Assembly: GCA_030599585.1 (NCBI GenBank)
Contig: JAUVNS010000016.1
Location: 1-64,000 of the forward strand
Direction: 5' to 3'
Length of the DNA stretch: 64,000 nt
Source of the DNA: Promethearchaeota archaeon
GTDB lineage: Archaea > Asgardarchaeota > Lokiarchaeia > Sigyniarchaeales > SOKP01
In this document: positions 25,123 through 63,844 of the stretch, piece after piece
Layout of the letters: every line of letters starts with the position of its first letter
Numbering within the stretch: the first letter of the stretch is position 1
The notes under the pieces: generated by a model
Told to the model about the DNA's origin: nothing
Seen by the model: only the letters and a program-made list of their open reading frames with translations
The model's database searches: none
Position numbers and translations under genes: made by a program

Positions 25123-26016
25123 TTAATTTAAAATCGTTTTAAGTTGCCCAGCTATTTCTTTACGAAATAAGGGATTTCCCGTGAGCCGTTTAGAGAAAAA
25201 ATTTGCTAACTCTTCGTATAAACTTTCCCTATCCCGTGAGAGAAATTCGGTTTTTAGGTTGCTCACGATTAAATAAAGAAAAACGTTTACGAACACTTCC
25301 CGCGCTAGTTCCAAGTGAGAGGGTGATAGGTCGACCATAGTGTGCTGGTACTTGTTACGAATAGCGATATATTTAATGATTATCGTCTCAATTTCTTTCG
25401 GAAACTTGAGCTTTACCATCTTATTGACCATGATCTCTTTTCCATCTTGATTGTTTTCGTCATTTTTTTCGCTAAACCGTTCCTTGTAGAGCGTTTCTAA
25501 TTTAGGATATAATTTCACAAAAAACTTGTGATCGTCGTAATAGCTCATTTTAATCCACTGTTCTGCCCCAATCTGGTCTAAACACCGATCAATTTCTTCT
25601 TTAACTCCGTCAATTATGTTTGGCTTTTTTTCTTCCTCCGAATTATCGTTGTTATGCTTGGATACCAAATTATTAACTCGTCTCGCAACCGTCTCCAAAA
25701 GCTCGTTCTTTTCTTCTATTTCTTTTCTTAATTGCGATTCAACGCGAGGAGACGAAGGATTTATTTGGGTTTGTAAGAAGGCCTGAGTCTTTTTTTTTAC
25801 GAAGAGAGAGGTAAAATACGTGACGTCTTCAGTCATACGAGCTCGACATTGAAGGAGCAATTGTTTTAGCTCTTTTGCGCTGGTTTTTCCTTCGGTAAAG
25901 TTTTTTATCGCGATTTTAAGTTCTTCTAACTCCTCATCTTTGAAAATAATTTTTTCTATTATGTTCTCAAAATCCGTTATTTCTTGACTCTTTACTACTT
26001 CTTGACTCTTTGCCAT
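25123..26016 (-). CDS. Helical hypothetical protein, downstream gene of the VirB4/HerA-like operon
   Basis: TAATG overlap with the upstream gene; coiled-coil region; RNKYQH resembles a HEPN Rx4H motif. Confidence 0.75.
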   Translation of the reverse strand: MAKSQEVVKSQEITDFENIIEKIIFKDEELEELKIAIKNFTEGKTSAKELKQLLLQCRARMTEDVTYFTSLFVKKKTQAFLQTQINPSSPRVESQLRKEIEEKNELLETVARRVNNLVSKHNNDNSEEEKKPNIIDGVKEEIDRCLDQIGAEQWIKMSYYDDHKFFVKLYPKLETLYKERFSEKNDENNQDGKEIMVNKMVKLKFPKEIETIIIKYIAIRNKYQHTMVDLSPSHLELAREVFVNVFLYLIVSNLKTEFLSRDRESLYEELANFFSKRLTGNPLFRKEIAGQLKTILN

Positions 26017-29000
26017 TATATCGCCCCCATATCGCCCTCTACGTATTGTCTGAACCCGTCAAAAAGAGTAGAATAGGTTTCAAATATATTTTTACAGGTT
26101 TCGGCTACCTTTACTTGATCGGTTACTTCGACGCTGTTAATTAACGACAAATACTTCCGCAAGTCGTCGCTTGTAAATGGAAAACCTTGAATGTTTCCGA
26201 ATTTACCTAAGAACTCGTCGATATCTTCGGAAGTTACGGCGTAATTCACACTGTAATATTCTTTGTAGACGCTATGTAGAAATTTTGGAAGCAAATCCCG
26301 AGCCGTTTTGAGCACTTTCTCGTATTTTTTGTAGCTTAAATTTTTGTGCATGATGAAGTATTCGTAATACAATATAGGAGCAAAATGTTTAGCTAGGGCG
26401 CTTCTTATCTTGATCGGGTTTAAAAGCTCCGGATCGGGAGCTTCTTCAAGTATGAGCGCAGCATCGGATTCTAATTCCACCGGCTCGTAAGTTATTATCG
26501 AACTATCTCGCGAGTCGTAGTAATCTTTTAACACCCTCTGGTAATGGGGTCCGACCGCAAAAGAAGTCTGCATGGATTCTGAACCGCTCGCTCTTTTTGG
26601 GTGGCTTTCTATTAAATATTGTTTGCTTACCATAATCTCGAACACATTATCTACGATTTCCCTCTCCCGTTTTTTGTCTGTCGTAATTTTTGCGACGTAG
26701 GGCTTCAACACTTCCCGAAGTTCTTCTTTTACTTTTTTTTTGTAAAGATTTCCTACGGTATCGACCGCTTGAATGTTGTTTAAAAATTTCACAATTCCTT
26801 CAATTAAATCGCTATAGCCGGCAAAATCACTTTCGAAAAGAGTAGTCTGAGCTCTTTTCATGATCTTTCTCTCCGTTTTTTCTAAATCATACCCTTGTTT
26901 TTCCATATATTTCACGATCTCTTCCCACGAAAGAGGTTCAGTTTGTTGTAATTCTTCGAAGTCAAGTTGCACGGGGAACGATTGGTAAATGTCTTCTCGC
27001 TTCACTACAGCCTCGTCTTGCTTCATCGCTGCGATGTACCTCGTCTGATAGCCTTCGTTCCTCCGACTGCTGTAGTAGCCTACACCGTGTAAGTTCTCTA
27101 AATTCATCTGTCCGTTGAGCACTGCCACGTCTCTTTTATCCGAAGCCCGAAAGGTTACGATGTTATCGAAGTAATTGAACGCGTTCGGGTGTAAATACCT
27201 TATCTGAGAAGCAGAACAGATGGTTCCAAACCCTTTTTCTACGAAAGGGGAGAGGAATTTGTCTATTTTTCCGTATTGGATTTTTTTATCCAAGAAAAAA
27301 CCATCAAATACTACGTCTATGTGTGGCATAGCGATAAATTTAGGGATATAGGATTCTCCAGTTTTTAAATAATGAATAAATTTCGAAAGGACCACGAAAG
27401 CAAAATAACATTGCTTATCGTAGTCTCTTAGCTCGGAAAAATCTATGATTATAGTTTTATCGTTGGTGATGAACTCGTGCGCTTGGGTGGAGTCTTGAGA
27501 CTCGGGTTGCTGATTCTGAATAAACGAGGCTTCTTGAGGCGTAAATTCTTTGAAGAAAGAAAGCAAAGTTTCGGTAACCGAAGATTTCTCCCAGTCGCGT
27601 TGCGTAGTTAAGTCTAACACTAAGGTAGATACGTCGATATCTGGGTTTCGGAGTATTGTGTTTTTAAAAGTCTCGATAGTCCGCTCGTCTTTCTTAAAGC
27701 ACATCATGTAGGCGTCAAACATGTAGTCCAAATATCCAGGGTTGTGCTTATCGAAAGGTATTCCCGAACGGAGTGGGTTTATCACGATAGTTTTGCCTAG
27801 TTTGTGGTAGATAAACTGATTCTCAAAGATGGAACCTTGAAACATTTTTATAACTTTTGACCAATTACCAGTAAAATCGAACACTATAGAAGAATAGCCC
27901 TTTTTAACCAATTCTACTACGATTTTTTGGGCTAAAAGTTCTCGGCTAGAGTTCGTGCCGTTAGTTAAAAATAGATTGCGCGCTTGCTCGATCAAAAATC
28001 CAGCGGGCACTTCGCTTTCTAAGTATTCGGTGTTAATCGTGGAGCCAACAACGATATCGTTTTTAAGTTGTAAAGGCGTGTTAAACTCTGCGGCTAACCT
28101 GGTTTCAACTCCTTTTTTAAACTGGTTAGCGATCATGGTAAGAAAATTTAAGGTTTTACCTTGATACAACAAATAGTTAAGGTGAGAGCCGTTTCTTCTA
28201 AAGAACCTATTCTTAAGCACTTCTAACTCAAAACCCGATTCTAACAGGTTGCCTCTTAATTGTTTTAATTTAAAGTTCATATAATTGTTCCCGTAAGCCG
28301 CTTTTAACACGCCCATTTGTTCTATTAACGTTCTTTCGATCCTGTCCATAGTTTCGTAATCGAGAGAAGGTGAATTAGAAACCACCGAGGTAGAATAGGT
28401 TGTAATTACGCTCCACATCCCCGCCCGATCTCTCAACCAAGCGTCTCGCCCTTCTGGGTTGTTTCGGAAAGCCATAAGTAAGATTTTTTCTCGTTCGTTT
28501 AGGTAATCAAACCCCTCGTCGTCAAATTTCTTGAAGTTTAACGGTTTTAATTGAAACGAGACGGTAAAAGGCGTTCCTTCTTTGTTTAACGATTCGTAAA
28601 ACTTAGCGGGATTGCAATACGGTGGCGGGTTGCAAAAATACACGTTTGCCATTTTAATTCCGCCGGTAGTTTTTCCTTCCACTTGGTAAAAAATAGTTTC
28701 AGGAGTTTTTCTCGATTTAAAGAATTCTATTTCTGCAAACGGATCGATAAGCCCAATATCTTTAAATTTAAACAAAGAACCCTTCATTACTTGAAATAAC
28801 AATTCCTGCCACCAAAAAAGTAAAATCGTAACGATTATACCAAGGCTTATTAAAAAACGGTATCCCATAGGTAAGGCAAAAAACAATAGAGACACGTCTA
28901 ACGCTATCGTTATGCCAATTACATACGCCACCTTTAAGATGGAAGCCGTTAGTTTTGAATTTGTAGGTTTACACGTAATTTTTTTAGGATCGGACTCTAA

Positions 29001-29843
29001 TGGAACGTCTCGCTTCAATACGGTGCTCCTAAACGACTCAATTAACGCTTGTTCGGTTAGAAGCGACACTTTAAAGTGGTGGAAATTGGACGAAATCCCC
29101 GTTTTTAACGCAGTTACGCTTTTCCGGAGCTGACCTACCAACTCGGTCACCTTAGACTTCGTGATTTTTCCGGTCATTTTATAATAAGTAGAAAACAAAA
29201 TAACCGTCTCGAAGGTAGTATTTTTTCCGTTTCCTTTACTATCGATTATTTGAAGTGGTTTGTGAACGATCTGGAAAGTATAAGGGGTTCGATTGTTGTA
29301 CATTCCTTTGATAAATGTATGTAAGGACGGATTCACGTTTTCGGCCATGACTTCGACTTTTAAAGTACTTACGCCGGTAGTTACCAAATCTACTCTATTT
29401 GTATAGTACAGCACGGATTTATAATACTCAGCCTTGTCGTAATCTTTCTTGTCGTATTCAGTCTGCCAGAAAATCAAGTTTTGAAAAGGGTTAAACGCTC
29501 CAAATTCCAATAGGTGACGCAAACCAAAAAAACTTTTTCTAAACACCAGCACGAAACTTATCCCGACTACAACGGTTGCGCCAATCGAGAGCACAAAATC
29601 CATCGTGGTTAAAACTAACGAGGCAAAAAAAAGAAATTCGATTATTACAAACGAGATCGCTTTTTTGAGCGTGTCGGTTTTATCGATGTCTTTATAAGAA
29701 GGGAAAGCGTTCCAGACGCTATAGTAGGGGTCGTCGTCGCCTTCTCTGTCGTCACCTTTACTGTTTTCGTTACTTTCTTTTCCTTTTCCTTTTCCATTCC
29801 AATTATTATCTTCGTCTAAAAATTCTCCATACGATTTTACCAT
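26016..29843 (-). CDS. Membrane-anchored VirB4/HerA/FtsK-superfamily protein with degenerate Walker motifs
   Basis: Two pairs of N-terminal TM helices; SIVFDFTGNW, INPL, TIIIDFS, GFGTICSASQ and NIVTFR follow HerA/VirB4 order; P-loop position reads TNGTNSSRE, Walker B position FIAMPHID. Confidence 0.75.
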   Translation of the reverse strand: MVKSYGEFLDEDNNWNGKGKGKESNENSKGDDREGDDDPYYSVWNAFPSYKDIDKTDTLKKAISFVIIEFLFFASLVLTTMDFVLSIGATVVVGISFVLVFRKSFFGLRHLLEFGAFNPFQNLIFWQTEYDKKDYDKAEYYKSVLYYTNRVDLVTTGVSTLKVEVMAENVNPSLHTFIKGMYNNRTPYTFQIVHKPLQIIDSKGNGKNTTFETVILFSTYYKMTGKITKSKVTELVGQLRKSVTALKTGISSNFHHFKVSLLTEQALIESFRSTVLKRDVPLESDPKKITCKPTNSKLTASILKVAYVIGITIALDVSLLFFALPMGYRFLISLGIIVTILLFWWQELLFQVMKGSLFKFKDIGLIDPFAEIEFFKSRKTPETIFYQVEGKTTGGIKMANVYFCNPPPYCNPAKFYESLNKEGTPFTVSFQLKPLNFKKFDDEGFDYLNEREKILLMAFRNNPEGRDAWLRDRAGMWSVITTYSTSVVSNSPSLDYETMDRIERTLIEQMGVLKAAYGNNYMNFKLKQLRGNLLESGFELEVLKNRFFRRNGSHLNYLLYQGKTLNFLTMIANQFKKGVETRLAAEFNTPLQLKNDIVVGSTINTEYLESEVPAGFLIEQARNLFLTNGTNSSRELLAQKIVVELVKKGYSSIVFDFTGNWSKVIKMFQGSIFENQFIYHKLGKTIVINPLRSGIPFDKHNPGYLDYMFDAYMMCFKKDERTIETFKNTILRNPDIDVSTLVLDLTTQRDWEKSSVTETLLSFFKEFTPQEASFIQNQQPESQDSTQAHEFITNDKTIIIDFSELRDYDKQCYFAFVVLSKFIHYLKTGESYIPKFIAMPHIDVVFDGFFLDKKIQYGKIDKFLSPFVEKGFGTICSASQIRYLHPNAFNYFDNIVTFRASDKRDVAVLNGQMNLENLHGVGYYSSRRNEGYQTRYIAAMKQDEAVVKREDIYQSFPVQLDFEELQQTEPLSWEEIVKYMEKQGYDLEKTERKIMKRAQTTLFESDFAGYSDLIEGIVKFLNNIQAVDTVGNLYKKKVKEELREVLKPYVAKITTDKKREREIVDNVFEIMVSKQYLIESHPKRASGSESMQTSFAVGPHYQRVLKDYYDSRDSSIITYEPVELESDAALILEEAPDPELLNPIKIRSALAKHFAPILYYEYFIMHKNLSYKKYEKVLKTARDLLPKFLHSVYKEYYSVNYAVTSEDIDEFLGKFGNIQGFPFTSDDLRKYLSLINSVEVTDQVKVAETCKNIFETYSTLFDGFRQYVEGDMGAI

Positions 29844-29849: not shown

Positions 29850-30704
29850 TCACCTTTTTCCGTAATACAGTTTGTTAATAAATACTAAAATTACCATCAC
29901 TCCTACGCAAATAAGAGTCGAATTACTTACGGTCATGGATAACACGCCGTACATGAACGACTCCACCAAAAGAATTGCCCCAATCATGCCAAATAAAATA
30001 ATTAAACCAAAAACCACGAGTTGTCCGGCGTTTTCTTTTGTATTTCGATACGAAATGTTGTCTTTTAACGAGCCTGAAACTACGATCTTTCTCCTCGATT
30101 TCTGCTCTAACTTTGTTTTGATTGTTTTTAGTTGTAAAATCTTTTCAAACGCGTTTTTATCGAATTGTTGTTCGAGCTGAATCTGGAGGGCTTTCTCCTC
30201 GTCTTTAAACCGTTGCATTAATATCGGGCTAAAAGTGTTGTCGCTTCTTCCTTTTTTAGACCGACCACCAGAAAGAAACGAAAACATAGATATATTGCGG
30301 TTTGAATGTAGAGCGTCTGCGTTAATCTTCTCGTGTAAATTGGGAATTTCTAATTTTCGGAGCTCGTAATACGTCTCAAGTACGCTTTTTACTTGCGTCA
30401 GGTTAATATCTCCCTCCCGTCTTAAAAACAAAAGTTCGATCTGAGAAATTGTTTCTATCCATTCTTTCTTGAACACGACAATATCGAAGTTGAGCGAAAA
30501 TATGTTGTTTACGAGTTTCATGTATTCAAAAATGTTCTCCCCCGCTTCTTTGCTCCTCGACCGAAACCCTAATTTAATTCCGATCTCGTCTACGGCGTTG
30601 CTTACGAACACGAAACTGACCACTGATAACCTTTTGTAGTTACCTGACTCCTTACAGAGCTGGGCCAACCGTCTTAACTTTAGATCTAACACTTGTTCGC
30701 TCAT
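29850..30704 (-). CDS. Hypothetical protein with two C-terminal TM helices
   Basis: ATGA overlap with the upstream gene; hydrophobic C-terminus. Confidence 0.8.
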   Translation of the reverse strand: MSEQVLDLKLRRLAQLCKESGNYKRLSVVSFVFVSNAVDEIGIKLGFRSRSKEAGENIFEYMKLVNNIFSLNFDIVVFKKEWIETISQIELLFLRREGDINLTQVKSVLETYYELRKLEIPNLHEKINADALHSNRNISMFSFLSGGRSKKGRSDNTFSPILMQRFKDEEKALQIQLEQQFDKNAFEKILQLKTIKTKLEQKSRRKIVVSGSLKDNISYRNTKENAGQLVVFGLIILFGMIGAILLVESFMYGVLSMTVSNSTLICVGVMVILVFINKLYYGKR

Positions 30705-31450
30705 TTTTTGCCCCTCGCTTCCAAAAAATCTTCATATATAAATTCTGCTTCGTTTTTTACCCCTTTTTTGCGCTTGACTCGGGAAGATTCGAGTTCTAAT
30801 TCTTCTTGGGCTATTAATCGGTCTAAATCGAACGGTTCTTTTGCGTTCGTAATATACGCGTTAACCATTTTTTCGGGAGTTGATTGTTCCTTTTCGAAAG
30901 TATTTACTACCGAATGGTTAAACAAGGCGTACGGAAAAGTACACCCAAAAGAAATTACTTGAAGCCAATATCCAGGACCAAGGGAATAATACAAAGTAAG
31001 TTCTAACTCGTAATCGTAATAGACCATGAAAGGATAATACAAGTCGTTTGGCAATAGAAAAAATAACGGGAACACCGACACAAAAAATCCTATAAGCGTT
31101 ACTAACGAGAGAGTAATAAAACCGAACCTTTTAACTTTCACCAAGTTATCTCCTTTTTCTACGTCGTGAAAAAGCGCGGAGTAGCCAGAAAGGAAAATAA
31201 CGATTACAAAAATAATCGCGATCACAACCGGCATAGTAGCGTTCTGGGGCTGGAAATGATCGTTAAATAAATTCCCACCCGCAAACGGAGTGCTCCACCC
31301 TAACAAAGCGTTATACGTCCACGAAGTGACGGTCGCTCCGCTATCGAGTACTCCTTGAAAGTAATACCAATCCAAAAAAACGGAGGCGAGACTAAAGATA
31401 AGGCCAACTAAAAAAATTATTTTATATCCTGATTTTATATTTATCGACAT
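30701..31450 (-). CDS. Four-TM membrane protein (claudin/tetraspan-like topology), first gene of the operon
   Basis: Four hydrophobic segments, W-rich first loop, LGPGYWL before TM4. Confidence 0.8.
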   Translation of the reverse strand: MSINIKSGYKIIFLVGLIFSLASVFLDWYYFQGVLDSGATVTSWTYNALLGWSTPFAGGNLFNDHFQPQNATMPVVIAIIFVIVIFLSGYSALFHDVEKGDNLVKVKRFGFITLSLVTLIGFFVSVFPLFFLLPNDLYYPFMVYYDYELELTLYYSLGPGYWLQVISFGCTFPYALFNHSVVNTFEKEQSTPEKMVNAYITNAKEPFDLDRLIAQEELELESSRVKRKKGVKNEAEFIYEDFLEARGKK

Positions 31451-32068: not shown

Positions 32069-33856
32069 TTACGGATCGTCTAAAAACGACGAGTATTTAC
32101 CGTTATATTTTGTTGTTGATACGTTAACAGACTTAGCTTTGACTTGCTCGGGTTCAAACATGTTTTTAAATTCAGGTTCGCTTCGTTTCGTGTCAATGCT
32201 ATTTTTTAAAGATTTGACTTCGACTTGTTCAATTACCCCAAACGAGGCTTCCTTTCCTAAACACTCGTATCCAAACTGAGCCATCAACTCGTCCGTCAGC
32301 TCTTCCTTAAAATCGAGTAAATCGGTTTCGTTAAATTCCAAAGTTTGTTGGTAGTATGGCGTTTTTACTTGAACCACGAACTCCTTTTTAGTTTTATAGG
32401 CTCTGAAGTATAAGAACGCGAGCAAGGAAAGGTAAATCCCTAGGACAGCGAACCCAACGGTGTTAAGTAACCTCAATAAAAAATACATTTCGGCAAAATA
32501 AATTACTAAAAGCGCTACTGCGTACCCGAAGATAGGAATTGAAGCGTATCTTACGCGAGAGTTAAGCTCGACTTGTGATTTTTGATAATCTTTAATAGAA
32601 CTCTTTTTTTTCGTTCTCTTCTCGATCATTTTGTATTTCTTCTCTAAAAATTTAACCAGAGGAGGAACATCGGTGCGAACAACTGCGTGAAGGTTCGAAG
32701 TTCTTTGGTACGGAAAGACCAGCGATTTTTCCATGCTTTTAGGAGGGGCGTTGCACACTAAGATAGGTTCGATAACGACTTTATATTGCGTGGTTCCAGA
32801 GAGAAACACCAAATTTTTATTTCCGAAGCTTTTTTCCGATCGTAATTCTAGTTGTAAATATTTTTGGAAGAACTGAAGAATAGTAGTATCGTTTGCCACG
32901 TCTTCTTGGATATTATTTCGGACTTGGAATAAATTCTGGGTAATTTGTTTTACGTCGTTAAAAGCTCGCGAATCTTTGTTGTTCCGATAATCTTTCAATT
33001 CTATCTTGGTTTCGTCAACTAATACCGTTCCGCTTCCTTCAAACCGTTTCACAGGAAACAGAAACAAAATTTTAAGGTTATTCGAAACCCCCACTAGTTT
33101 ACACCCGAGATAGTCGAGGTTCTTCGTAAACTCACTTAACGATTCTAACGAGTCAGGGATTTCGTAACACCCTAAATCTTTGAACGTTTCTCTAATTTCG
33201 AAAGCTCTACTTCTAGAAAGTCCTGCGTCTACGGTAATTGGTTTTGTGGCAGTAACTTCGATTTCTTCTTCTACTCCTTTTTGTTGTTCTGGCTGATCTT
33301 GTTCCGTTAACATCGCGCGACTAGTATGTTTTATTTCTTGCGAAGCTTCTTCTTCGTATTCAACTACTTCCTCCTCTTCTTCCTCGTATTCAATTACTTG
33401 CTCAACCTCTAGTTGACCACCGTAATCAACGATTTCAGGGAATTGAATTGCTTTTGGTTTGCTTGCGCTAAAGTCTTCTTCCGCCTGAACTTCTTCGTAA
33501 GAATTTTGTGTCTCTTCTACGATTAGTTCTTCCACTTCGTATTTTTCAACTTGGGTTGGTAATAATTCGATTTCTACTGCTTCTTGAATTTGAGGCGTAT
33601 TGTTTGCAATACTTTCTTCTTGAGAACTATCCAAATAATTTTTAGCCGCAGTAATGAATTTTGTGGCGGTGGTTAAACCAATTCCGGGAGTTTCAGAAAG
33701 TCGTTCAGGAGTCATCTCGGCAATTTGTCTTACCGTTACAATTTTTGCGTTATATAATTTCTCGGCGGTAGTCGTACCAATACCCTTGATCTTGGTTAGA
33801 TCGTCTCTAGAAAGCTTAACAACTACGTTTTTTTGGGTTCCGTATACATCTGTCAT
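32069..33856 (-). CDS. Helix-hairpin-helix DNA-binding protein with acidic linker and two C-proximal TM helices
   Basis: DLTKIKGIGTTTAEKL and LSETPGIGLTTATK (HhH x2); Glu-rich linker; TM pair YASIPIFGYAVALLVIYF / TVGFAVLGIYLSLLAFLYF. Confidence 0.85.
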   Translation of the reverse strand: MTDVYGTQKNVVVKLSRDDLTKIKGIGTTTAEKLYNAKIVTVRQIAEMTPERLSETPGIGLTTATKFITAAKNYLDSSQEESIANNTPQIQEAVEIELLPTQVEKYEVEELIVEETQNSYEEVQAEEDFSASKPKAIQFPEIVDYGGQLEVEQVIEYEEEEEEVVEYEEEASQEIKHTSRAMLTEQDQPEQQKGVEEEIEVTATKPITVDAGLSRSRAFEIRETFKDLGCYEIPDSLESLSEFTKNLDYLGCKLVGVSNNLKILFLFPVKRFEGSGTVLVDETKIELKDYRNNKDSRAFNDVKQITQNLFQVRNNIQEDVANDTTILQFFQKYLQLELRSEKSFGNKNLVFLSGTTQYKVVIEPILVCNAPPKSMEKSLVFPYQRTSNLHAVVRTDVPPLVKFLEKKYKMIEKRTKKKSSIKDYQKSQVELNSRVRYASIPIFGYAVALLVIYFAEMYFLLRLLNTVGFAVLGIYLSLLAFLYFRAYKTKKEFVVQVKTPYYQQTLEFNETDLLDFKEELTDELMAQFGYECLGKEASFGVIEQVEVKSLKNSIDTKRSEPEFKNMFEPEQVKAKSVNVSTTKYNGKYSSFLDDP

Positions 33857-33884: not shown

Positions 33885-33898
33885 TATTTAAAGGAAAA
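33885..33898 (-). promoter_or_regulatory. Pyrimidine-BRE promoter of the HhH membrane protein gene
   Basis: Minus strand TTTTCCTTTAAATA, 29 nt from the ATG. Confidence 0.7.
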
Positions 33899-34767: not shown

Positions 34768-34845
34768 TTGTTATCATCTTTTCTTTTAGATGTTTGTCTG
34801 CTCGACCATATCGGGAAATCCGATTATTAATAAATAAAAATTGAT

Positions 34846-50380: not shown

Positions 50381-50386
50381 TAAAAT

Positions 50387-50731: not shown

Positions 50732-50733
50732 AA

Positions 50734-52019: not shown

Positions 52020-52295
52020 ATGGAAGTAAGCATTATGGATTGGGAGAAATATATTAAAGATTTTGTAACTTATACGGAACATACTAAAAGTGTATCGGTC
52101 CTTGAAATTGATGAAGGAGGAGAAATAAATAAAGTAGATGTTTTGGATGAAAAGGTTGAAGATATAGGAAAAAAATATTTTACTTGTTTATTATGCAATA
52201 AAAGGATTAAAGATTCCACAGAAAGTAGTTTATTCCAAATATTTACTGCAAAGAAGATTAAACTTCATTTTGAAAAAAATCATCTTCAAACTTAA
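52020..52295 (+). CDS. C2H2-like zinc-finger small protein (CpG-poor)
   Basis: CLLC...HFEKNH. Confidence 0.55.
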   Translation: MEVSIMDWEKYIKDFVTYTEHTKSVSVLEIDEGGEINKVDVLDEKVEDIGKKYFTCLLCNKRIKDSTESSLFQIFTAKKIKLHFEKNHLQT

Positions 52296-54043: not shown

Positions 54044-54925
54044 TTACCTTAATTGCATCAGAGGAAATATTGTCGAGGTTACGTCGGACAGGTCGGGAAT
54101 ATATCTCTTAACGAAATTCTTGACACGAAAAACGATCTTTATGGTTAAAAAGAACCACAGACAAAAATACACGGCGTAATAAAACAACACGCAAAAATTT
54201 GTTAACCAGAGGCCGTCGACTTGCGGAAGATACCGTAAAAAAATCCACGGATCGCCAAATTCTTGAAAAACGCCGTTATGCCAGTAAATTGCCTCACCAA
54301 GTATGTATCGACCGATTTGGGCGTAAATAGGAACGAACACCTCGAGTTTCATCTTTTTTTTTCTATAGATTACAATCGCTAAGATCAACCCGAAGATCGT
54401 AGATCCCAATGCTCCAGCTAGGGAAACAAAAGACCTTCTATAATCGGGGGGTAAAGAATAATATTCTACTAGTCCGCCTCCAAAGGGGTAGATAGTAATA
54501 CTGTGAACTTGACCGCCGTACGCAGCAGCGGTTATTGCGTGGCTTATCTCGTGAACAAAGGTAAAAATATATGGTAAGGAAAAATATAGAACGATTCCTA
54601 ACCAAAACCCAAGCAAACCTTTCGCGTAAAAGACGTTTTCGTAAGACCAAATTTTCTTAGATTTTATAACTTGCTTATTTTCTCCAACAAAAGTTATTGT
54701 TAATTGCTGGTTCGTCGCGTAAAAAGTTCTAATTTTGGCGTGAAGACTAATTTTGGTAGAAAGTAGTTTGAAAAAACAATAGAAGCCGAGATTTAGCCCC
54801 ACGACGCTTAAAAAGAGCGTAATCTGCGCGATTCCTAATTGGTCGTAGAATCGCGTAAGAACGCTGAGAATTAAGTTAGCAAAGGCGAAATACAAAATAA
54901 TTTTCTTTTTCTTTTTCGATACCAT
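54044..54925 (-). CDS. M50B-like membrane metalloprotease
   Basis: TFVHEISH, GGGL, VSLAG, GD; several TMs. Confidence 0.85.
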   Translation of the reverse strand: MVSKKKKKIILYFAFANLILSVLTRFYDQLGIAQITLFLSVVGLNLGFYCFFKLLSTKISLHAKIRTFYATNQQLTITFVGENKQVIKSKKIWSYENVFYAKGLLGFWLGIVLYFSLPYIFTFVHEISHAITAAAYGGQVHSITIYPFGGGLVEYYSLPPDYRRSFVSLAGALGSTIFGLILAIVIYRKKKMKLEVFVPIYAQIGRYILGEAIYWHNGVFQEFGDPWIFLRYLPQVDGLWLTNFCVLFYYAVYFCLWFFLTIKIVFRVKNFVKRYIPDLSDVTSTIFPLMQLR

Positions 54926-55002
54926 TACAAATAACGTAACTCGGATAAATTATTTAAACAAAAAAATGTAGAGCTTAAAAAAAAAAGAAGTTAAAGGTAG
55001 AA

Positions 55003-55290
55003 TTACTGAACGATTACTTGGTTCCCAGTTTGTTTCTGAGCGTTCGCTTCGTATTTTCGAATAAACCACGCTGGTTGGAAGCGGTATATGTAAAGGTTAA
55101 TAGAGCCCACTATGCTCCCCGCGATCACCAAGAATAACGAAAGCAACCCAAGGTTCAAAAAATTAAACGTGAACGCGAAAAAAGCTCCAATGGCAGCGAC
55201 AAAGCTAACTATTCCCCAAACTAAGTTAAGTTTTACCACGCTTTCTTTTGAAATAACTATTTTTTCTACTTGGTCTAAAATTATCACCAA
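55003..55290 (-). CDS. Small two-TM protein
   Basis: Hydrophobic hairpin; minus-strand TTTTCTTTTTAAA at 55310-55322. Confidence 0.65.
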   Translation of the reverse strand: MVIILDQVEKIVISKESVVKLNLVWGIVSFVAAIGAFFAFTFNFLNLGLLSLFLVIAGSIVGSINLYIYRFQPAWFIRKYEANAQKQTGNQVIVQ

Positions 55291-55494: not shown

Positions 55495-56529
55495 TTAAGG
55501 GGGTGGCAAACTGACCGAGTCTTTTCTACGCCTGAGCACTCCAAAGACTATTAAAACACATATTAACGCCCCAGAAGCGATTCCAAATCCTAGTGTCCAC
55601 TCCATCGGCATGTAGAAATATCCGCTTACCGTTTCGTTTTTTGGTGGCTCGGGCTCTGGCTCAGTTCCGTTGTTTACGGTACTAATCTGATAATCTTCTG
55701 CTATGGCGTATGCAACGTTTACCACCTCAACTTGACAACGAATTCGAATTTTTACCGTGTATATTCCTTCTATAGCGGTTCCGAAATCGAAACGCAACAC
55801 CGTTCCCACGCTTCCCATGGTTTCGTTTTGGTAGATCGTAAATTCAATCTCGCCGGGATCAGTCACGTCGTAATCTACCCTCACTTCGTTGTCAACGGTT
55901 AGCCCACCAATAGCAGAAACTCGTCCGATGTAGAACTTGTAGGACGTATCGGTTTTAAACGCTGTGTTATGCTCGACCACCATCTCGTTGGTGAACTTGT
56001 TTACTTGGTAGAGTTTCAATCGTTCCAAAAATTTGGGGGCTATTATGTCGTATAAACACTTATCTTCTGTATCGAACGATATTTTTACGTGTAAGTTCAA
56101 GTTAAGCTCACATTCAACTGAAATAATAAAGCTGTAATTGCCCTCAATCGCAGTTCCGAACGGAATTTCGAACCAATCGTCGCCTTGAGAAATGTTCACT
56201 TCCGTCTTAAACACTTCGTATACATCTAAAACCGGATCGATAATAGTGACGTTGATTTCGCTATTGTGAGGGGTTACGATCTCAAGTAAGATGTAATAAT
56301 TAATTTTTTCAAACAAGTAAAAGTCGTCGAATCGCAAAGTATCGAAAGGCGCCAAAAAGGTAAACACTTTATCTACTAGATTTTCTTCGGAACTCGTCTT
56401 TAAGTTGTTAGTTTGTTGATCTATATTTCCTAAGCCGGTGCGAGGATAAGTAGACAACGTTCCAAAAACGATTAAGCAGATAACGAGCGCAATAATTATT
56501 AATGGTTTTCTACGAGAGTTAATAACCAT
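55495..56529 (-). CDS. Surface protein with two repeated beta-rich domains and a C-terminal TM
   Basis: Signal sequence; internal repeat FGTAIEGNY / FGTAIEGIY; EPEPEPP linker; TM followed by RRRK. Confidence 0.8.
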   Translation of the reverse strand: MVINSRRKPLIIIALVICLIVFGTLSTYPRTGLGNIDQQTNNLKTSSEENLVDKVFTFLAPFDTLRFDDFYLFEKINYYILLEIVTPHNSEINVTIIDPVLDVYEVFKTEVNISQGDDWFEIPFGTAIEGNYSFIISVECELNLNLHVKISFDTEDKCLYDIIAPKFLERLKLYQVNKFTNEMVVEHNTAFKTDTSYKFYIGRVSAIGGLTVDNEVRVDYDVTDPGEIEFTIYQNETMGSVGTVLRFDFGTAIEGIYTVKIRIRCQVEVVNVAYAIAEDYQISTVNNGTEPEPEPPKNETVSGYFYMPMEWTLGFGIASGALICVLIVFGVLRRRKDSVSLPPP

Positions 56530-56836
56530 ACACCTGCAATTCTTTGAATTCAGAAACGAGAATCTTAACGTTTGAACACCTATCGAAATCGATACAAGTA
56601 AAGCACGGTTGGTCCGACCAAAAATACGCCGGCTGATTTGTCCTCTCCACGATTAAAAGCGGAAACTTACCTTTTGGGCATTCTAACGCAGAATTGCTAA
56701 TCGTCCCCCTCTTTGGAAGCGGATAGGAAGTCCCACACGCATCGCACTTTACGAACCGTTTGTAATTTTTTGTTTTGTACATCATCAAAGAGCATTGACA
56801 GGACGGACAAGTACCTATTTCTTGAATCTGTCTCAT
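56519..56836 (-). CDS. Topoisomerase-I-type C4 zinc-ribbon protein
   Basis: IGTCPSC...RFVKC..C..SYPLP...CPKG. Confidence 0.8.
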   Translation of the reverse strand: MRQIQEIGTCPSCQCSLMMYKTKNYKRFVKCDACGTSYPLPKRGTISNSALECPKGKFPLLIVERTNQPAYFWSDQPCFTCIDFDRCSNVKILVSEFKELQVYGY

Positions 56837-57276: not shown

Positions 57277-57657
57277 ATGGCAGGAAACGATCATAAAGTT
57301 GATACAAAAGAATATATCGCCAATTATATCGAACAGAAGGTAAGAGATTTGCTTGAATACGACATGAACGAATACCAAACCCCCGCGTGGGTACAAGCTG
57401 CCGAATTATTTAACGAAATTGTGGTTCCTTGTGAAAGTTATTATTCAGAAGGGTTTTATACTTTAGGAATCGATATCGTGAAGAAAGCAGAAAACCACGG
57501 GTTTCAAGTAGCGTATCAAAGAATCCCTGGAACCTACAACGCGAAATTAATCTCAAAAGAAGATGATTCAGACGCTAAAATTGATAACTTCGACTACTCA
57601 AAAACTATTAATTCGATTAAAGCGTGGCTAACAAAAAATAAGGAACGGTTTTCGTAG
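57277..57657 (+). CDS. Hypothetical protein
   Basis: 126-aa ORF, ATG start. Confidence 0.7.
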   Translation: MAGNDHKVDTKEYIANYIEQKVRDLLEYDMNEYQTPAWVQAAELFNEIVVPCESYYSEGFYTLGIDIVKKAENHGFQVAYQRIPGTYNAKLISKEDDSDAKIDNFDYSKTINSIKAWLTKNKERFS

Positions 57658-58353: not shown

Positions 58354-58725
58354 TTAATAAAAGTGGTATCCTTGAGGCGGGGGGTTGCCTCCTATCATAA
58401 ATCCTAATATGTCGAAGGAAACTCCGGTAAGAAACGCGCCGATCCACAGCAACAAAACGCCATACAATATAGTTTTTACGCTAAACCTTTTAAAAAAGAT
58501 TTTAAGAAACCCGATTACTAACACCGCCCCTCCGATAGTAAGGCATATCTCTCCTACGCTCACGAAAACAGTTTTAAAAAGCGATCCTACCATATAACGT
58601 AAGTTTGACCCGAAGAAAGGGACGACTATAGCTATGAACCCCAATATTCCTGCAAAAACTAGAAAGATACGGTTTGGCTTGCGCTGTTTGCGAAGGATGA
58701 AAATGTCGTTTTTATTTCTAGCCAT
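58354..58725 (-). CDS. Small multi-TM membrane protein
   Basis: Three hydrophobic segments; minus-strand TTTTTCTTTAAAAA at 58772-58785. Confidence 0.75.
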   Translation of the reverse strand: MARNKNDIFILRKQRKPNRIFLVFAGILGFIAIVVPFFGSNLRYMVGSLFKTVFVSVGEICLTIGGAVLVIGFLKIFFKRFSVKTILYGVLLLWIGAFLTGVSFDILGFMIGGNPPPQGYHFY

Positions 58726-58908: not shown

Positions 58909-60114
58909 TTAAATTAGATTAGAAGGTAAAACTGGATTTTCGAGTAAGGAGCGAAAATTTTTGGCAGAAGGATGTTCTCCTAACGCTTCGATTATTAACC
59001 TTTTCCCGAGCGTAGCAGCAAAGCCCACCATTTTATAAGTTGGATCATCTGTTCGAACCATCATATCGTTAATTGACTTATCGGTATATACTTCAAAATC
59101 TTTGATGTATTGTATTACTTCTTTATCTTCCCAACCTTCGACAAGCTTATAATAGACAGCGTTAAACTCTATAAAATACAAGTCCTTCCTTACCATATTT
59201 TGCTGTAGCAACTCCTCGATGGACGGTTTATCTCGCTCAACACAGAATTCTTTTAACGCGATCTCTTCTTGCTCTCGATAAGAAAAAAGCGTATTTATTC
59301 CAATACCGGCGATCCCTTCACACATTATCATATTAGGTGTGTTGTAAAGTAGAATAGCGTGTTCGAACCGATTCTCTTTTCGGTATAGTTTATCTTCTGC
59401 GACCACAAACTCGGTATGGTGCCCTGGATATCCCTCGTGAGAACTCGCCCGCAAAAAACTAGTCCAATACAACTTTTTCGGATTAATTTTCACTAACGAA
59501 TAATAATTCCCGTCATACCATTCGTAGGCAGCCCAAGGTATGCTTGAATCTACAACCACTTTGATGTTTGATTCTTCGGGAAGCATTTCAGGGTACAGTT
59601 CTCGAGTTTTTTGTTCTGTTAATTTTAACCCTTTCTCGAACGCTTCTTTAACCTCTTCTTCGGGAATAGCTCGATTCTTTCTCATTTTTTCCATACGCTC
59701 TGTTAGAGTTCCTGATCCCCCGTATGCTTCGTCTGTCCGCGCCTTTAAATCGTCCAGTTTCGATTCTTTAAAAGGACGGAGTTCCATATCGGCTTGTATG
59801 CTAAAATCTTCCTCTATTGATCTTCCTTTTCTTTTTCCTAAGACATCTCTTTCGATGGTAACTTCTATCGCGTTAAGCATTTTTTCGAGGTATTCCTCGC
59901 GCTTTCCGTCGAACCCTTGATCGGTAACGCTTTTTTGCAAGGAAGCACAATCCTTAAGGAGCTGTATGGGAGAGATTTCAGATTCTTTGTTAACTTTCCC
60001 TTTAATTTCCTTCGGACCGTAGTAATAATCCTTGTATCCCTTTTGATGTTTATCAATTCGCAACCCTAATTGCAAATAATCGCGTCCAAACGGTCCGATT
60101 GTGCCTGCTGCCAT
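58909..60114 (-). CDS. DUF885-like zincin metallopeptidase
   Basis: DYYYGP; HEGYPGHHTE; EGIA. Confidence 0.85.
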   Translation of the reverse strand: MAAGTIGPFGRDYLQLGLRIDKHQKGYKDYYYGPKEIKGKVNKESEISPIQLLKDCASLQKSVTDQGFDGKREEYLEKMLNAIEVTIERDVLGKRKGRSIEEDFSIQADMELRPFKESKLDDLKARTDEAYGGSGTLTERMEKMRKNRAIPEEEVKEAFEKGLKLTEQKTRELYPEMLPEESNIKVVVDSSIPWAAYEWYDGNYYSLVKINPKKLYWTSFLRASSHEGYPGHHTEFVVAEDKLYRKENRFEHAILLYNTPNMIMCEGIAGIGINTLFSYREQEEIALKEFCVERDKPSIEELLQQNMVRKDLYFIEFNAVYYKLVEGWEDKEVIQYIKDFEVYTDKSINDMMVRTDDPTYKMVGFAATLGKRLIIEALGEHPSAKNFRSLLENPVLPSNLI

Positions 60115-60257: not shown

Positions 60258-61355
60258 ATGGGAGTTAAACTTCAAGACTTAGTAACCCGAAACGCGATCG
60301 AATTTTCCAAGCTCGCAGGCAAGATTATAGCGATAGACGCCCCGAACATTATTATGAGCTTGTTTAATTTCGCTCGTAAAAACTCAGACGGTTCAAGAGC
60401 GGGACTCATTCTCGACCGCACCCAAAGACCTATATCTCACTTATATGGTTTACTCTACAGGACGAATTTTTTCCTTTCTAAAAAGATTTTTCCAATTTTC
60501 TGTTTCGACGGGCTCGATTCCGACCTCAAAAAACTTAAGACGAAGGACAGACTCAACGATTTCTTGTTTACGGAAAAATTATTCCGATCTTTACTACAAT
60601 CGGGAAACAAGCAAAACGCGAGACAAATTGCAATGTCGAAAGAATACATGTGGCCTAACATCGTTAAAGAATCAAAGCAACTTTTAGGAGCGTTGGGCGT
60701 CCCGTGTATTAATTCACCAGCATCAGCGGAATCGCAATGCGCTCAACTCGTCAAAGATAAAGTAGCTCATTATTCTAACTCGCAAGATTTCGATTCGCTG
60801 TTGTTCGGCTGTCCAAGAACGATACAAAACTTCTCAAAGTCGCGTAAGAGAAAAGTTCACGGTCGATGGACCTATCAAAAAATCGCTCCGGTTCAAATAA
60901 ATCTCAAGGAGAGCCTAAAAAAATTAAATGTAAACCAATTTCAGTTGGTAGACATGGCAATTCTCATCGGGAACGACTATTTTAAGGGTATAAAAAATAT
61001 TGGACCGAAACACGCGCACAAATTCCTTCTCAAACATAAAAGTTTAGAAATGGTTATTCAGCAGGAAAAAAACGCGTACGATTTTTCCTTACTCACCTCA
61101 AGTATTATCTCAAAAGTGAGAAAAATTTTTTTGTTGCCTGAAGTAATAAATCGCTACCAAGACATTAGGTGGAACTATCCGAACGAACAAAAAACACTTT
61201 TTTTACTGTGCGAAGATCACCACCTCAACTTGGAAAGAGTGCAAAAAAATCTGGACAAGTTTTCTACAAATTTTGAAAAGTGTCAAAAATATTTCGACGC
61301 TCACAAAAACAACCGTAGAACGGTTCAAAACACTTTACAAAAAGTAATTTCCTAA
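60258..61355 (+). CDS. fen: Flap endonuclease 1 (FEN1/XPG family), divergent
   Basis: MGV.L, AIDA.N, SHLYGLLYR, FDG, SQDFDSLLFG, LIGNDY..GI..IGPK; SPASAESQ in place of APSEGEAQ. Confidence 0.9.
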   Translation: MGVKLQDLVTRNAIEFSKLAGKIIAIDAPNIIMSLFNFARKNSDGSRAGLILDRTQRPISHLYGLLYRTNFFLSKKIFPIFCFDGLDSDLKKLKTKDRLNDFLFTEKLFRSLLQSGNKQNARQIAMSKEYMWPNIVKESKQLLGALGVPCINSPASAESQCAQLVKDKVAHYSNSQDFDSLLFGCPRTIQNFSKSRKRKVHGRWTYQKIAPVQINLKESLKKLNVNQFQLVDMAILIGNDYFKGIKNIGPKHAHKFLLKHKSLEMVIQQEKNAYDFSLLTSSIISKVRKIFLLPEVINRYQDIRWNYPNEQKTLFLLCEDHHLNLERVQKNLDKFSTNFEKCQKYFDAHKNNRRTVQNTLQKVIS

Positions 61356-61402: not shown

Positions 61403-61999
61403 TTATTTTAGATTAAATTTTACTTGTTCTCTATATTTTTCCTTACCAATGTATATTGCATAATGAGGAACTTTGAGTATTTTGAATTTATGGTTCAAGT
61501 TTCTTTTTAGAATATTATATGAATCGTTACCAAACGCGATTAGAGTTGGATTATTAGCACCTATATCAGCCAATTCTTGTAAAAAGTTTTCAACGTTTTC
61601 TTCCTCAAATTGTGTGTTGTTCTTTAAATATGAAATAACCTTACCAGATATTTTTTGTTCGAAGTCTTTTATAATATCTGTCATATAACCGCCCCAATAA
61701 GGCGTCCCTCTAAATGCAAATCTAATTTTGAAATCATTTGACCCTGGTCGTTTATCGTGAAAGTTTGCTAAGGGAACTTTAATACTCCTTGAAATGTTTA
61801 AACCAACTAGAACAACGTTAGGTTTAAGTTGTGAAAGTAAATTTTTATTAATATCGGGGTCTAAAATAGTTAGGTCGCCAGTATTGCTTTTCGGTTTATT
61901 ACCTTCTTCCGCCCATATTGCCCAACTTCCAACATTACCATATTTTTCCTTTATGAAATCATATTTTTTTCTGGTAAATGTTCCATCTAATTCTTCCAC
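61403..61999 (-). CDS. Uracil-DNA-glycosylase-superfamily-like protein (CpG-poor)
   Basis: SWAIW, VLVGLN, YMTDIIK, LIAFG, VPHYA. Confidence 0.65.
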   Translation of the reverse strand: MEELDGTFTRKKYDFIKEKYGNVGSWAIWAEEGNKPKSNTGDLTILDPDINKNLLSQLKPNVVLVGLNISRSIKVPLANFHDKRPGSNDFKIRFAFRGTPYWGGYMTDIIKDFEQKISGKVISYLKNNTQFEEENVENFLQELADIGANNPTLIAFGNDSYNILKRNLNHKFKILKVPHYAIYIGKEKYREQVKFNLK

Positions 62000-62221: not shown

Positions 62222-62839
62222 ATGCCAGGATCAGCGGACGATTCGATCGTCCTCCAAAACCACTTAGGAGCGTATAGAAGCGCTTCTGGAAGCAACGTAA
62301 ACAAAGCACAAGTGCTTAATTTTTTTTTTAGGTTCGAAAGCTTTGCAAACGACAACAACGAATACAGAGATTTAAGCCCTTTGTTCGTTGGAACCATAGT
62401 AAAGGATACGGATTTACCCGATTCAGTCGTATTGCGCACTGCTTTAGGGTTCATTTCAGAAGCGTCTAAATTTAGCCAATTGTTAAGCTTAGGACTCGTA
62501 TCGTGGGGTTCGGGCGAAAAAAGTAAATTGAGACAAGCAAGGTTCTACTTGCGGAGGGCGTATAATATAGCCCCGGTGTTCAATTATGCTCGAGCGATCG
62601 TTAACTTAGGAATACTGCACAAAATCTTGAAAAAACATTTTTATTGGCCTCGCATCACCACTCAGCTTGCTTTAACAATTTTTGTCACTGACAGGAACGA
62701 CCCAACTATAGAGAAAAATGAGTATATTTTGCAAAAAAACTTAAGAGCTTTTTGCGCGTGCTCCGCTTACGCGTTTCACATGGCTCGAAAAAAGTTAAAC
62801 ATCAACAAAATGGGACGCGTGACTCCTAACCCGTTTTAA
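62222..62839 (+). CDS. Hypothetical protein with a possible TFB-like cyclin-fold/HTH C-terminus
   Basis: TQLALTIFVT...ILQKNLRAFCACSAYAFHMARKKL resembles the spacing of the TFB second repeat (inference). Confidence 0.6.
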   Translation: MPGSADDSIVLQNHLGAYRSASGSNVNKAQVLNFFFRFESFANDNNEYRDLSPLFVGTIVKDTDLPDSVVLRTALGFISEASKFSQLLSLGLVSWGSGEKSKLRQARFYLRRAYNIAPVFNYARAIVNLGILHKILKKHFYWPRITTQLALTIFVTDRNDPTIEKNEYILQKNLRAFCACSAYAFHMARKKLNINKMGRVTPNPF

Positions 62840-62857: not shown

Positions 62858-62871
62858 TTTTCCTTTAAATA
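62858..62871 (+). promoter_or_regulatory. Pyrimidine-BRE promoter of rpa
   Basis: TTTTCCTTTAAATA, 50 nt before the GTG. Confidence 0.7.
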
Positions 62872-62920
62872 TTCGCCCCTTATTTTTTACTTATTAGTAA
62901 ATTATTATTAGGTTTTAATC

Positions 62921-63844
62921 GTGAGCGATTCAGTAGACGAGTTATATCGACAGTTATTAAATCTTGGTATGTCAGAAGCAGAACTAGAAAAAAAAGTTAA
63001 AAACAAAGTAGAAGAATACGGCGGTTTTATGACAGAACAGGGAGTGTTGTTTATAATTGCCAGAGAAAACGGGCTTGATTTACGGTCTCCCGATATTGAC
63101 GATTATCTTTACGACGAGTTAGAAGAAGAAATTGATTACGACGAGTTTACCATAGATAATTCGGACCTCAAGGAAGGTATGACCAACATAGTGCTATTAG
63201 GTAAGATTTTAACCGTCCAAAAAGTTCGCGAGTTCGTCAGGAAGGATCAGTCCGTGGGAAAGGTGTGCTCTTTTTTGTTCGGCGACTCAACCGGAACCGT
63301 AAAAATCGTTTTGTGGGACGATCGGGCAGATATCGTTAATCAAGAATATTTCAAACAGAAAGAGCTCGTAAGAATTGTTGGTGGATACGCAAAATTAGGA
63401 CAGAACGAGGCAATAGAAGTTCACTTAGGAAAAAAAGGTACGCTACTTCTCTCTCCCGAAGTGTCCGGTAAGAAGCGGGAACAATTAGAAGCGATAACGG
63501 TTGCAAGTTCAGACGATTATTCTCGTAAGAGCGCTTTAAAACCGTTAAGTCAAGCCCTCGAGCAAAATAAATACGTCAGCGTAGTAAAAGGAACCGTCCT
63601 AATTGAAGAATTTAAGGAGTTAGAATTGAAATCGGGCGATAAATCGTTTTTGCTCACCATCCTCTTAGAGTCGGAAGGTACTACGATTCGAGTGAAAGCG
63701 TGGGGTATGAAAGCGATAGAATGTTTAAAAATAATAAACGACGGAGATTGCGTTTCAATAACTAATCTAGCGGTAAAAGAGAACAAATACTCGTTAGAAA
63801 AAGAGCTTTCTTTTACGAAGAATTCGAACGTGTTATTAATTTAA
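62921..63844 (+). CDS. rpa: Replication protein A-like ssDNA-binding protein (DUF2240-like N-terminus, two OB folds)
   Basis: GGFMTEQGVLFIIARENG; REFVRKDQSVGKV...GDSTGTVKIVLWD; IRVKAWG. Confidence 0.9.
   Translation: MSDSVDELYRQLLNLGMSEAELEKKVKNKVEEYGGFMTEQGVLFIIARENGLDLRSPDIDDYLYDELEEEIDYDEFTIDNSDLKEGMTNIVLLGKILTVQKVREFVRKDQSVGKVCSFLFGDSTGTVKIVLWDDRADIVNQEYFKQKELVRIVGGYAKLGQNEAIEVHLGKKGTLLLSPEVSGKKREQLEAITVASSDDYSRKSALKPLSQALEQNKYVSVVKGTVLIEEFKELELKSGDKSFLLTILLESEGTTIRVKAWGMKAIECLKIINDGDCVSITNLAVKENKYSLEKELSFTKNSNVLLI

Follow-up and report, generated by a model that had tools for sequence, protein, structure and literature searches.

The first 64,000 nucleotides of contig JAUVNS010000016.1 from a Lokiarchaeial Promethearchaeota archaeon (assembly GCA_030599585.1), referred to here as the window, carry a block in which membrane protein genes stand among genes for recombination and repair proteins. 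The question raised by this locus is whether these genes form a single unit, and whether that unit imports or exchanges DNA. A first-pass annotation of positions 25,123 to 63,844 had proposed a putative DNA-transfer apparatus coupled to a homologous-recombination toolkit. The block is ~45 kb in length, beginning at ~23.8 kb of the window and running past the window end to ~67.7 kb of the contig. It is composed of membrane protein genes and mostly paralogous repair genes, its clustering is conserved, its genes share a promoter motif, and they are lost jointly. A co-regulated, dispensable module is well supported, and the reading modestly favoured here is a dispensable, vertically inherited block of one Lokiarchaeial family that works as a single conditional regulon with a membrane-coupled recombination programme.

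The open reading frames (ORFs) of 25–64 kb were scanned against Pfam and NCBIfam, ~60 ORFs were scanned against Pfam overall, and PADLOC and PHROGs were applied to subsets. The window contig is labelled C12, other contigs of the same bin carry labels such as C3, C4 and C20, and the genomes compared carry G numbers.

Shared promoter motif and TFB paralog

The block motif TTTTYCTTTWAATA is a BRE-like/TATA element with the pattern TTTT[CT]CTTT[AT]AATA. Its density per 100 kb is 19.1 in the C12 block, 8.2 in the corresponding block of C20 and 0.47 in the rest of the genome (17–40-fold), and a plain TATA octamer used as a control shows no enrichment in the block. Among ORFs of at least 150 amino acids (aa), the 120 nucleotides (nt) upstream contain the motif with at most two mismatches in 13 of 34 cases for the C12 block and 11 of 43 for C20, compared with 55 of 3006 in the background (p 7e-14 and 7e-10). 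The common alternative promoter described in the first-pass annotation is therefore real. The motif fronts the genes for the HhH protein, Hel308, a 124-aa Zn protein and the RadA, FEN1 and RPA paralogs, with looser versions at the membrane and Hef operons. In-block enrichment is also found in G015, G224 and G240; in the last of these, the RadA paralog has moved 160 kb off and retains the motif ~150 nt upstream.

A candidate regulator is encoded within the block:

47810–49084, minus strand: divergent TFB paralog of 424 aa with a weak TFIIB Zn ribbon (Zn_Ribbon_TF, E 1e-3)

A profile built from eight orthologs of this protein has top matches exclusively to TFIIB/TFB cores; these are weak (E 6e-4 to 1e-2) and cover the first repeat only. 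The single sequence gave no match against the PDB. The block motif is not found upstream of the TFB paralog gene itself.

Recombination and repair genes

The DNA-enzyme genes of the block are the following:

35582–38122, plus strand: Hel308-type helicase of 846 aa, transcribed divergently from the membrane genes, matched by NCBIfam Hel308 models
39901–43209, minus strand: operon of a 195-aa protein, a Hef-family helicase without nuclease (725 aa) and a DUF5817/DUF1922 Zn-ribbon protein (174 aa)
49586–51438, plus strand: operon of an HExxH polytopic membrane protein (264 aa), a protein with two transmembrane (TM) segments (114 aa) and a RadB/KaiC-like P-loop ATPase (234 aa)
51520–51894, plus strand: 124-aa Cys-rich (Zn) protein, exact motif at 51485–51498
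52364–53657, plus strand: RadA paralog extended by a C-terminal HhH domain (Rad51, E 1e-60), in two frames, 52364–53239 and 53232–53657
60258–61355, plus strand: FEN1 paralog with XPG_N and XPG_I domains (TIGR03674, 274 bits, below the cut-off of 352)
62921–63844, plus strand: RPA-like paralog, 307 aa, OB folds, exact motif at 62858–62871

Nearly all of the genes listed in the first-pass annotation within ~39 kb are present by Pfam and NCBIfam, the RadB-like protein and the Top-type ribbon being weak matches. The NCBIfam scores of the window genes were compared with those of copies on C27, C24, C32, C4 and C3, and tallies were made in 30 congeners. The comparison supports the view that the repair genes of the block are mostly second copies, that is, accessory paralogs, with Hel308 as the exception: RadA, FEN1, Hef and RPA have other copies in the genome, and no second Hel308-like gene was found there, so that the window gene is both the sole and the best candidate. 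The Hel308-type gene scores 326–415 bits against cut-offs of 887–1216 (NF040935 and related models), with Helicase_dom4_arc at 27.0 for a 27-bit cut-off, and it adjoins the membrane operon in more than 12 genomes.

The Hef-family helicase (40429–42606, minus strand) scores 569 bits with NF010337 (cut-off 610) and covers only positions 5–548 of the 781-position profile, the C-terminal XPF-type nuclease being missing. A nuclease-bearing full Hef is encoded on C4 (781 bits, profile 50–780) and also matches the Xpf nuclease model. The canonical FEN1 is located on C32 (TIGR03674, 429 bits), and both FEN1 types occur in most genomes of the genus. A larger RPA homologue of 571 aa is encoded on C3. 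The RadB/KaiC-like P-loop protein (50734–51438) has a weak RadB match of 33.8 bits, and its Walker A motif is kept in all five full-length orthologs found. Paralogs of the 124-aa Cys-rich protein are located at C12:68966 and beside another RadA paralog on C15. On this low-GC contig (guanine plus cytosine, GC), positions 39898–47475 carry the Cys-rich protein in duplicated form, preceded by the block motif, and the RadA paralog nearby (345 aa, 36% identity with the window RadA) is seen in this genome only.

For the window RadA paralog, the first frame alone scores 273.6 against a cut-off of 259 (NF003301) and 247.9 against 361 (TIGR02236). The canonical RadA genes on C27 and C24 score ~448 and 427–428 bits and pass the curated RadA models. 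At least one of the canonical types is found in all 30 congeners searched and both in most, and the window-type third RadA occurs in 18 of the 30. The full-length ortholog on C20 matches Pyrococcus furiosus RadA at 209 bits, and the paralog is, as judged from its sequence, a genuine recombinase. It is 62–96% identical across the family and, searched with this one query, was found in 35 of 54 family genomes; outside the family the query gave one sister-family match, which stops at query residue 312 of 382. The frame is split by a 31-nt insertion, AGTGACGAGATATTTCGTCAGTCACTTCTAA, at 53171–53201, which folds as a hairpin. This insertion is missing from C20 and G015, where the frames are continuous (413–419 aa), and most relatives are unbroken at 412–419 aa. 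It is also present in C49 and G014 with compensatory changes in the stem, and similarly split frames occur in G016, G020, G044, G076 and G227. The pattern is consistent with a spliced mini-intron rather than the mark of a pseudogene.

Two further small genes lie to the left of the block, on the minus strand. Positions 8718–9455 encode a 245-aa weak Rad51/KaiC-like protein, and positions 8281–8625 encode a 114-aa DUF7576-like protein with the block motif upstream, which is also located near the block in G011, G014 and C20.

Membrane operon and HhH protein

The membrane part of the block is centred on a four-gene operon and a neighbouring HhH gene, all on the minus strand:

30701–31450, minus strand: 249-aa protein with four TM segments, first gene of the operon, block-conserved in all genomes compared, 3-mismatch motif upstream
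29850–30704, minus strand: 284-aa protein with a cytoplasmic helical part and a C-terminal TM hairpin, without a Pfam, PADLOC or PHROG match
26016–29843, minus strand: 1275-aa predicted membrane pseudo-ATPase of HerA/VirB4 fold with two TM hairpins and a helical C-terminus (structure model)
25123–26016, minus strand: helical protein of 297 aa ending the operon, with an Rx4H motif (RNKYQH), partly conserved
32069–33856, minus strand: HhH protein of 595 aa (HHH_5, E 7e-12), also carrying an acidic linker, a globular domain and a TM hairpin

Along the series of 249-, 284-, 1275- and 297-aa genes, neighbouring frames first overlap by 4 nt, then stand 6 nt apart and finally overlap by 1 nt. The C20 copy of the 297-aa protein aligns over aa 9–133 only. 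The HhH gene has an exact motif, TTTTCCTTTAAATA, at 33885–33898 upstream and keeps its place beside the membrane operon in the compared genomes.

The 1275-aa protein has no match in Pfam, PADLOC or the PDB (single sequence and 10-sequence profile) and one marginal match in PHROGs, to a family of unknown function. A homologue search with it returned close Lokiarchaeial relatives only, and a HMMER search gathered ~240 clusters at 50% identity; ten distant relatives scanned against Pfam gave no HerA, DUF87 or other P-loop translocase match. A first structure model from a 10-sequence alignment was discarded (pLDDT 53, HerA at E 4.5e-3 only). The AlphaFold (AF2) model of aa 380–1010 from a 70-sequence alignment reached a pLDDT of 88.6. 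With this model, Foldseek identified HerA (4d2i, E 9e-15) and TrwK/VirB4 (E 1e-12), and VIA-align gave VirB4 (4ag5, Z 24.6, 332 aligned residues), DndH (Z 24.3), HerA (Z 24.3) and TrwB (Z 21.7), with lower scores for STIV2 B204 (Z 15) and FtsK (Z 14.3). The HerA/VirB4-type RecA-like ATPase fold is thus confirmed at the level of the model. Since HerA, DndH and TrwB score as well as VirB4, the model does not choose between a HerA and a VirB4 assignment. In other Asgard families (f22, f15, f12 and others) the protein family is shorter or split, with ORFs of ~290 and ~535 aa in succession, and family f10 has forms of ~785 aa.

Genome setting and conservation

The bin is 4.85 Mb in size with an estimated contamination of 8.9%, and it is composite: ~0.5 Mb is redundant at 70–93% identity, mostly in GC-richer contigs (C12, C49, C51, C6, C52, C23 and C38 against C20, C24 and C32). 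Over positions 23.7–67.5 kb, C12 shares its gene order with the 411-kb contig C20 at 72–80% identity, and with the series C49, C6, C52 and C23 at 83–93%. Because the homology of C12 to the C51–C49–C6–C52 series continues outside the block at 83–93% identity and C12 is GC-richer throughout, its genes having ~2.7% higher GC than their C20 orthologs, C12 is probably one of three block versions from co-binned relatives rather than part of a triplication. A duplication within one genome was judged less likely on the collinearity beyond the block and the GC difference between C12 and C20. Two copies of block genes on large contigs in G203 and G054 point to a possible true duplication in genomes other than this bin.

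Gene order is kept in G015, G019, G014, G011, G009 and C20, which belong to the same genus and are collinear, and the block is also collinear in G224, of another genus. In G240, of a third genus, the block genes are reordered yet remain within ~25 kb. Lineage-specific insertions lie outside the conserved set at 34219–35451, 38186–38527, 46439–47716, 52020–52295, 54044–55290, 57277–57657, 58909–60114 and 61403–61999. The Pfam, NCBIfam, PADLOC and PHROG scans of window ORFs (the last two on subsets) matched no integrase, relaxase, primase or capsid family, and none of the ~60 ORFs scanned encodes a terminase, replication initiator or polymerase. PADLOC returned nothing notable and PHROGs only marginal, uninformative matches on these subsets. 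A mobile island, plasmid or virus was rejected, as these hallmark genes were not found and the locus is stable across genomes. The first-pass annotation was correct in setting the locus apart from viruses and plasmids; its term island, in the mobile sense, is not borne out. By gene content and position the block is chromosomal, vertically inherited and not mobile.

Dispensability and joint loss

Six key genes were followed across genomes, namely those for the 1275-aa protein, Hel308 and the Hef, RadA, FEN1 and RPA paralogs. In G017 (98% complete) the neighbourhood is kept, the 1275-aa gene is a 189-aa stump and Hel308 is internally deleted; none of the Hef, RadA, FEN1 and RPA paralogs turned up there, and the genes in between survive. 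None of the six was found in G022, G024 and G045, in each of which all six were searched, and none of five genes searched was found in G046. Short remnants of Hel308 and the RPA paralog are all that is left in G010. In another genus, the 1275-aa protein, RadA paralog, Hel308 and FEN1 paralog were not found in G174 and G179 (98–99% complete), and their congener G240 has all four.

Other genes of the block and its surroundings

The remaining conserved or window-specific genes are as follows:

23851–24675, plus strand: ThiF-family protein marking the block's left edge, which is conserved; 1-mismatch motif at 23771
39289–39893, plus strand: two small proteins of 94 and 83 aa, conserved in position, without a family match
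43278–46250, minus strand: 990-aa protein with a prenyltransferase-type alpha-alpha toroid (PF00432, E 3.5e-11), conserved in the block, relocated in G224
54044–54925: M50B protease (Pfam-supported), an insertion specific to the window lineage
55495–56836, minus strand: block-conserved operon of a 105-aa double Zn-ribbon protein and a 344-aa beta-rich type-I membrane/surface protein
58354–58725, minus strand: 123-aa small polytopic membrane protein with four TM segments, block-conserved, pilin-sized
62222–62839, plus strand: 205-aa conserved block protein, no family assigned

The two M50-like proteases of the first-pass annotation fare differently. The first is the M50B protease supported by Pfam; the second, the 264-aa membrane protein (49586–50380), has no Pfam match and is supported by a conserved HExxH motif in a membrane protein alone, kept in all eight orthologs found. 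Of the pilin-sized proteins, it is the size that holds, for the 123-aa protein; another small membrane protein is a 74-aa ORF near 57936. The 105-aa protein (56519–56836) has a weak Top1-type Zn ribbon (E 4e-4) and 61–91% identity across the family. A longin-domain protein (38723–39142, minus strand; Fuz_longin_1, E 6e-8) lies inside the block here and at the left block edge in C20. At the right end of the block (C12 65248–66471), a 177-aa protein that is roadblock-like by eye is followed by an Arf/Ras-type small GTPase, and the motif precedes the pair. At C12 77.4–92.2 kb, ~13 kb past the window, there is an operon of NurA, HerA (DUF87), Mre11-like and Rad50-like genes; next come genes for RNase_H_2, MYG1-like exonuclease, UvrD helicase and Mrr endonuclease proteins. 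The top-scoring DUF87 HerA of the genome is on C32, near the canonical FEN1.

Evidence against a single regulon and DNA exchange

Several observations weigh against a single regulon, or against its use in DNA transfer. We infer that the TFB paralog acts on the block motif; the paralog is still present in G017 and G024, which have lost block genes. The bin being composite, the same block is present in it three to four times. Coupling is imperfect: the clustering holds family-wide, and 12 of the 54 family genomes have the membrane operon but lack the RadA paralog. The 54 genomes, which are interrelated and many of them fragmented, comprise 32 with both the 1275-aa protein and the RadA paralog, these 12 with the 1275-aa protein only, three with the RadA paralog only and seven with neither. 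G013 and G021 (98–99% complete) have the left half of the block only. Joint loss can come from physical linkage alone, and related genomes are not independent.

The 1275-aa protein, which the first-pass annotation described as VirB4/HerA-like, keeps that fold but not the active ATPase motifs. Its P-loop position reads NGTNSSRE, similarly in relatives, and the G-x4-GK[ST] pattern (Walker A, GxxGxGK[ST]) is absent anywhere in all 29 diverse family members sampled. The position aligned with Walker B reads FIAMPHID, which is non-acidic, variable among relatives and different from the canonical hhhhDE. By canonical motifs the sampled members are pseudo-ATPases that would not hydrolyse ATP, and the missing Walker A and canonical Walker B therefore argue that the protein cannot be a motor. 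Among the membrane proteins, the likeness to VirB components holds for the 1275-aa protein; for its four-TM neighbour no VirB6/CedA link was recognised with Pfam, PADLOC, PHROGs or the Atlas, where it has no annotated relatives. From the charges around the TM hairpins, the positive-inside rule predicts a cytoplasmic location for the HhH domain and for every large domain of the operon, so no external DNA receptor is evident. DNA import is rated low because of the predicted dead ATPase, the absence of a recognised VirB6 relative and the cytoplasmic orientation of the HhH and ATPase-like domains.

Comparison with known systems

The closest archaeal parallels are two DNA-import systems, Ced in Sulfolobales and Ted in Thermoproteales. 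Ted loci have HerA and Rad50 as neighbours, and a TFB paralog jointly regulates Ced, Ups and HerA (PMC9905601). Like these systems, the block combines a membrane-associated protein of VirB4/HerA fold with small membrane partners, has recombination genes as neighbours or co-regulated genes, and has a TFB paralog as the likely switch (PMC9905601). In its logic the parallel with Ced/Ted is real, and the proposed programme would be analogous to the TFB3-controlled Ced/Ups/HerA response of Sulfolobales. CedB and TedB are considered ATPases that power DNA translocation (PMC9905601), whereas the block protein lacks Walker A in the sampled members and a canonical Walker B. A CedA/VirB6 homolog is not recognised for the four-TM protein, no pilus gene is recognised in the block, and the recombination partners are dedicated paralogs rather than housekeeping genes.

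The 1275-aa protein resembles VirB4/TrwK of type IV secretion, including VirB3–VirB4 fusions, in the fold of the C-terminal domain and in having an alpha/beta domain after N-terminal TM hairpins. The alignment with full-length TrwK spans model residues 1–605, though its root mean square deviation is ~14 Å. Unlike VirB4/TrwK, the block protein is without Walker A or B, its TM-hairpin module is duplicated internally, and it has a ~290-aa helical C-terminus.

Bacterial competence regulons, such as the ComK or sigma-X late genes, comprise ComEA, ComFA, SsbB, RecA and DprA. In these, a dedicated transcription factor and a special promoter box direct the expression of membrane proteins for DNA handling together with a helicase, an additional SSB and recombination proteins, and the block shares such regulatory logic. 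The membrane parts are, however, not homologous, and the HhH domain of ComEA faces outward whereas that of the block is predicted to face inward.

Multiple RadA paralogs have been described in Asgard archaea, less robustly for Lokiarchaea, in the available text of Matsuo et al. 2025 (PMC12722695). Relative to those clades, the block RadA has a C-terminal HhH extension and sits in a co-regulated block; as far as can be seen in that text, the genomic context of the Asgard paralogs is not described.

Alternative explanations

An ordinary conserved neighbourhood, in which unrelated genes are inherited together and the motif stems from the sequence history of the locus and not from shared control, would account for the vertical inheritance at one locus, for unrelated members such as the ThiF and toroid proteins, the small GTPase with its roadblock-like partner and TPR proteins, for the frequent lineage-specific insertions, and for the separation of the membrane operon from the RadA paralog in 15 of 54 genomes. 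It is nevertheless unlikely, as clustering survives heavy shuffling in G240, where the relocated RadA paralog retains its motif, the motif is enriched 17–40-fold while the plain TATA control is not, and in G017 separate deletions have struck the 1275-aa, Hel308, Hef-like and RadA-to-RPA genes with the intervening genes intact. The absence of the whole set from several 95–99% complete genomes would be unexpected for a core function, and segregation and division genes were not found in the block by the Pfam and NCBIfam scans. Both points make it quite improbable that the block is a cell-cycle or chromosome-handling regulon, in which the TFB paralog would cycle an FtsK/HerA-like scaffold, a DNA tether and repair paralogs for resolution or segregation with no DNA exchange. 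That proposal draws on a fold within the HerA–FtsK clade (FtsK, Z 14.3), on the predicted cytoplasmic location of the DNA-binding and ATPase-like domains, and on a precedent in Sulfolobus, where TFB paralogs drive cyclic transcription according to the available text of a preprint (bioRxiv 10.64898/2026.09.06.749720).

Two further proposals concern mobile elements. The block might descend from a virus or large integrated element, domesticated long ago, of which a recombination-dependent replication module (recombinase, SSB, flap nuclease, helicases and transcription factor) and a packaging or transfer ATPase were kept. Its gene set resembles viral recombination-replication modules, the HerA/FtsK fold includes viral packaging NTPases (STIV2 B204, Z 15), the C20 block has a GC of 0.351 against 0.329 in its flanks, and a second pair of Zn protein and RadA paralog lies on the low-GC contig C15. 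Integrase, capsid, primase, polymerase and terminase were not found among the ORFs scanned, PHROG matches are marginal, the chromosomal position is the same across the genus with divergence following that of the genomes, and the recombinase is 62–96% conserved across the family; such an origin is very improbable. An anti-mobile-element defence island, made up of a HerA-like scaffold, a HEPN-like partner and helicases, has only a slim chance of being correct. HerA-fold proteins are central to the SIR2-HerA and DUF4297-HerA systems, the last gene of the operon has an Rx4H motif, the contig also carries Mrr and UvrD genes, and the distribution is patchy, as for defence genes. Against this, the operon proteins have no PADLOC match, defence HerA proteins are active ATPases and the block protein is not, RadA, FEN1 and RPA proteins as highly conserved as these do not belong to defence systems, and the locus is stable rather than hypervariable.

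Proposed function and significance

As a single conditional regulon, the block would be switched on by damage, starvation or cell contact. Its membrane part comprises the four-TM and two-TM proteins, a predicted ATP-dead ring protein of HerA/VirB4 fold, the membrane-tethered HhH protein, predicted to bind DNA, the HExxH protease-like protein and small membrane or surface proteins. Its private set of DNA enzymes comprises the sole Hel308, the nuclease-less Hef helicase, a third RadA with an HhH tail, the RadB-like ATPase and second copies of FEN1 and RPA. DNA may be held at the inner membrane face by the HhH tether and the inactive ring and moved by the active helicases; the RPA paralog may coat it, and recombination and trimming may fall to the RadA and FEN1 paralogs. 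The least secure step is DNA import or exchange with an extracellular source, which by analogy with known systems appears doubtful. Rather unlikely, too, is the fuller proposal of a competence-like programme driven by the TFB paralog, in which a membrane complex of dead ring and HhH protein would pass imported or exchanged DNA to the private recombination set, the system having arisen independently of Rad51/Dmc1. If that were true, it would mean regulated genetic exchange in Asgard archaea with dedicated recombinase paralogs.

The locus offers concrete targets in one promoter motif, one TFB paralog and one RadA paralog with an added HhH domain, and the genomes with and without the block form a natural comparison set. 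The pseudo-ATPase family, with its ~240 clusters, is unannotated in public databases. If the block is a single regulon, close relatives of the eukaryotic ancestor would have evolved a second, conditionally expressed recombination toolkit, tied both physically and transcriptionally to a membrane DNA-handling complex. This would be the prokaryotic case nearest in logic to a meiosis-like or competence-like recombination programme.

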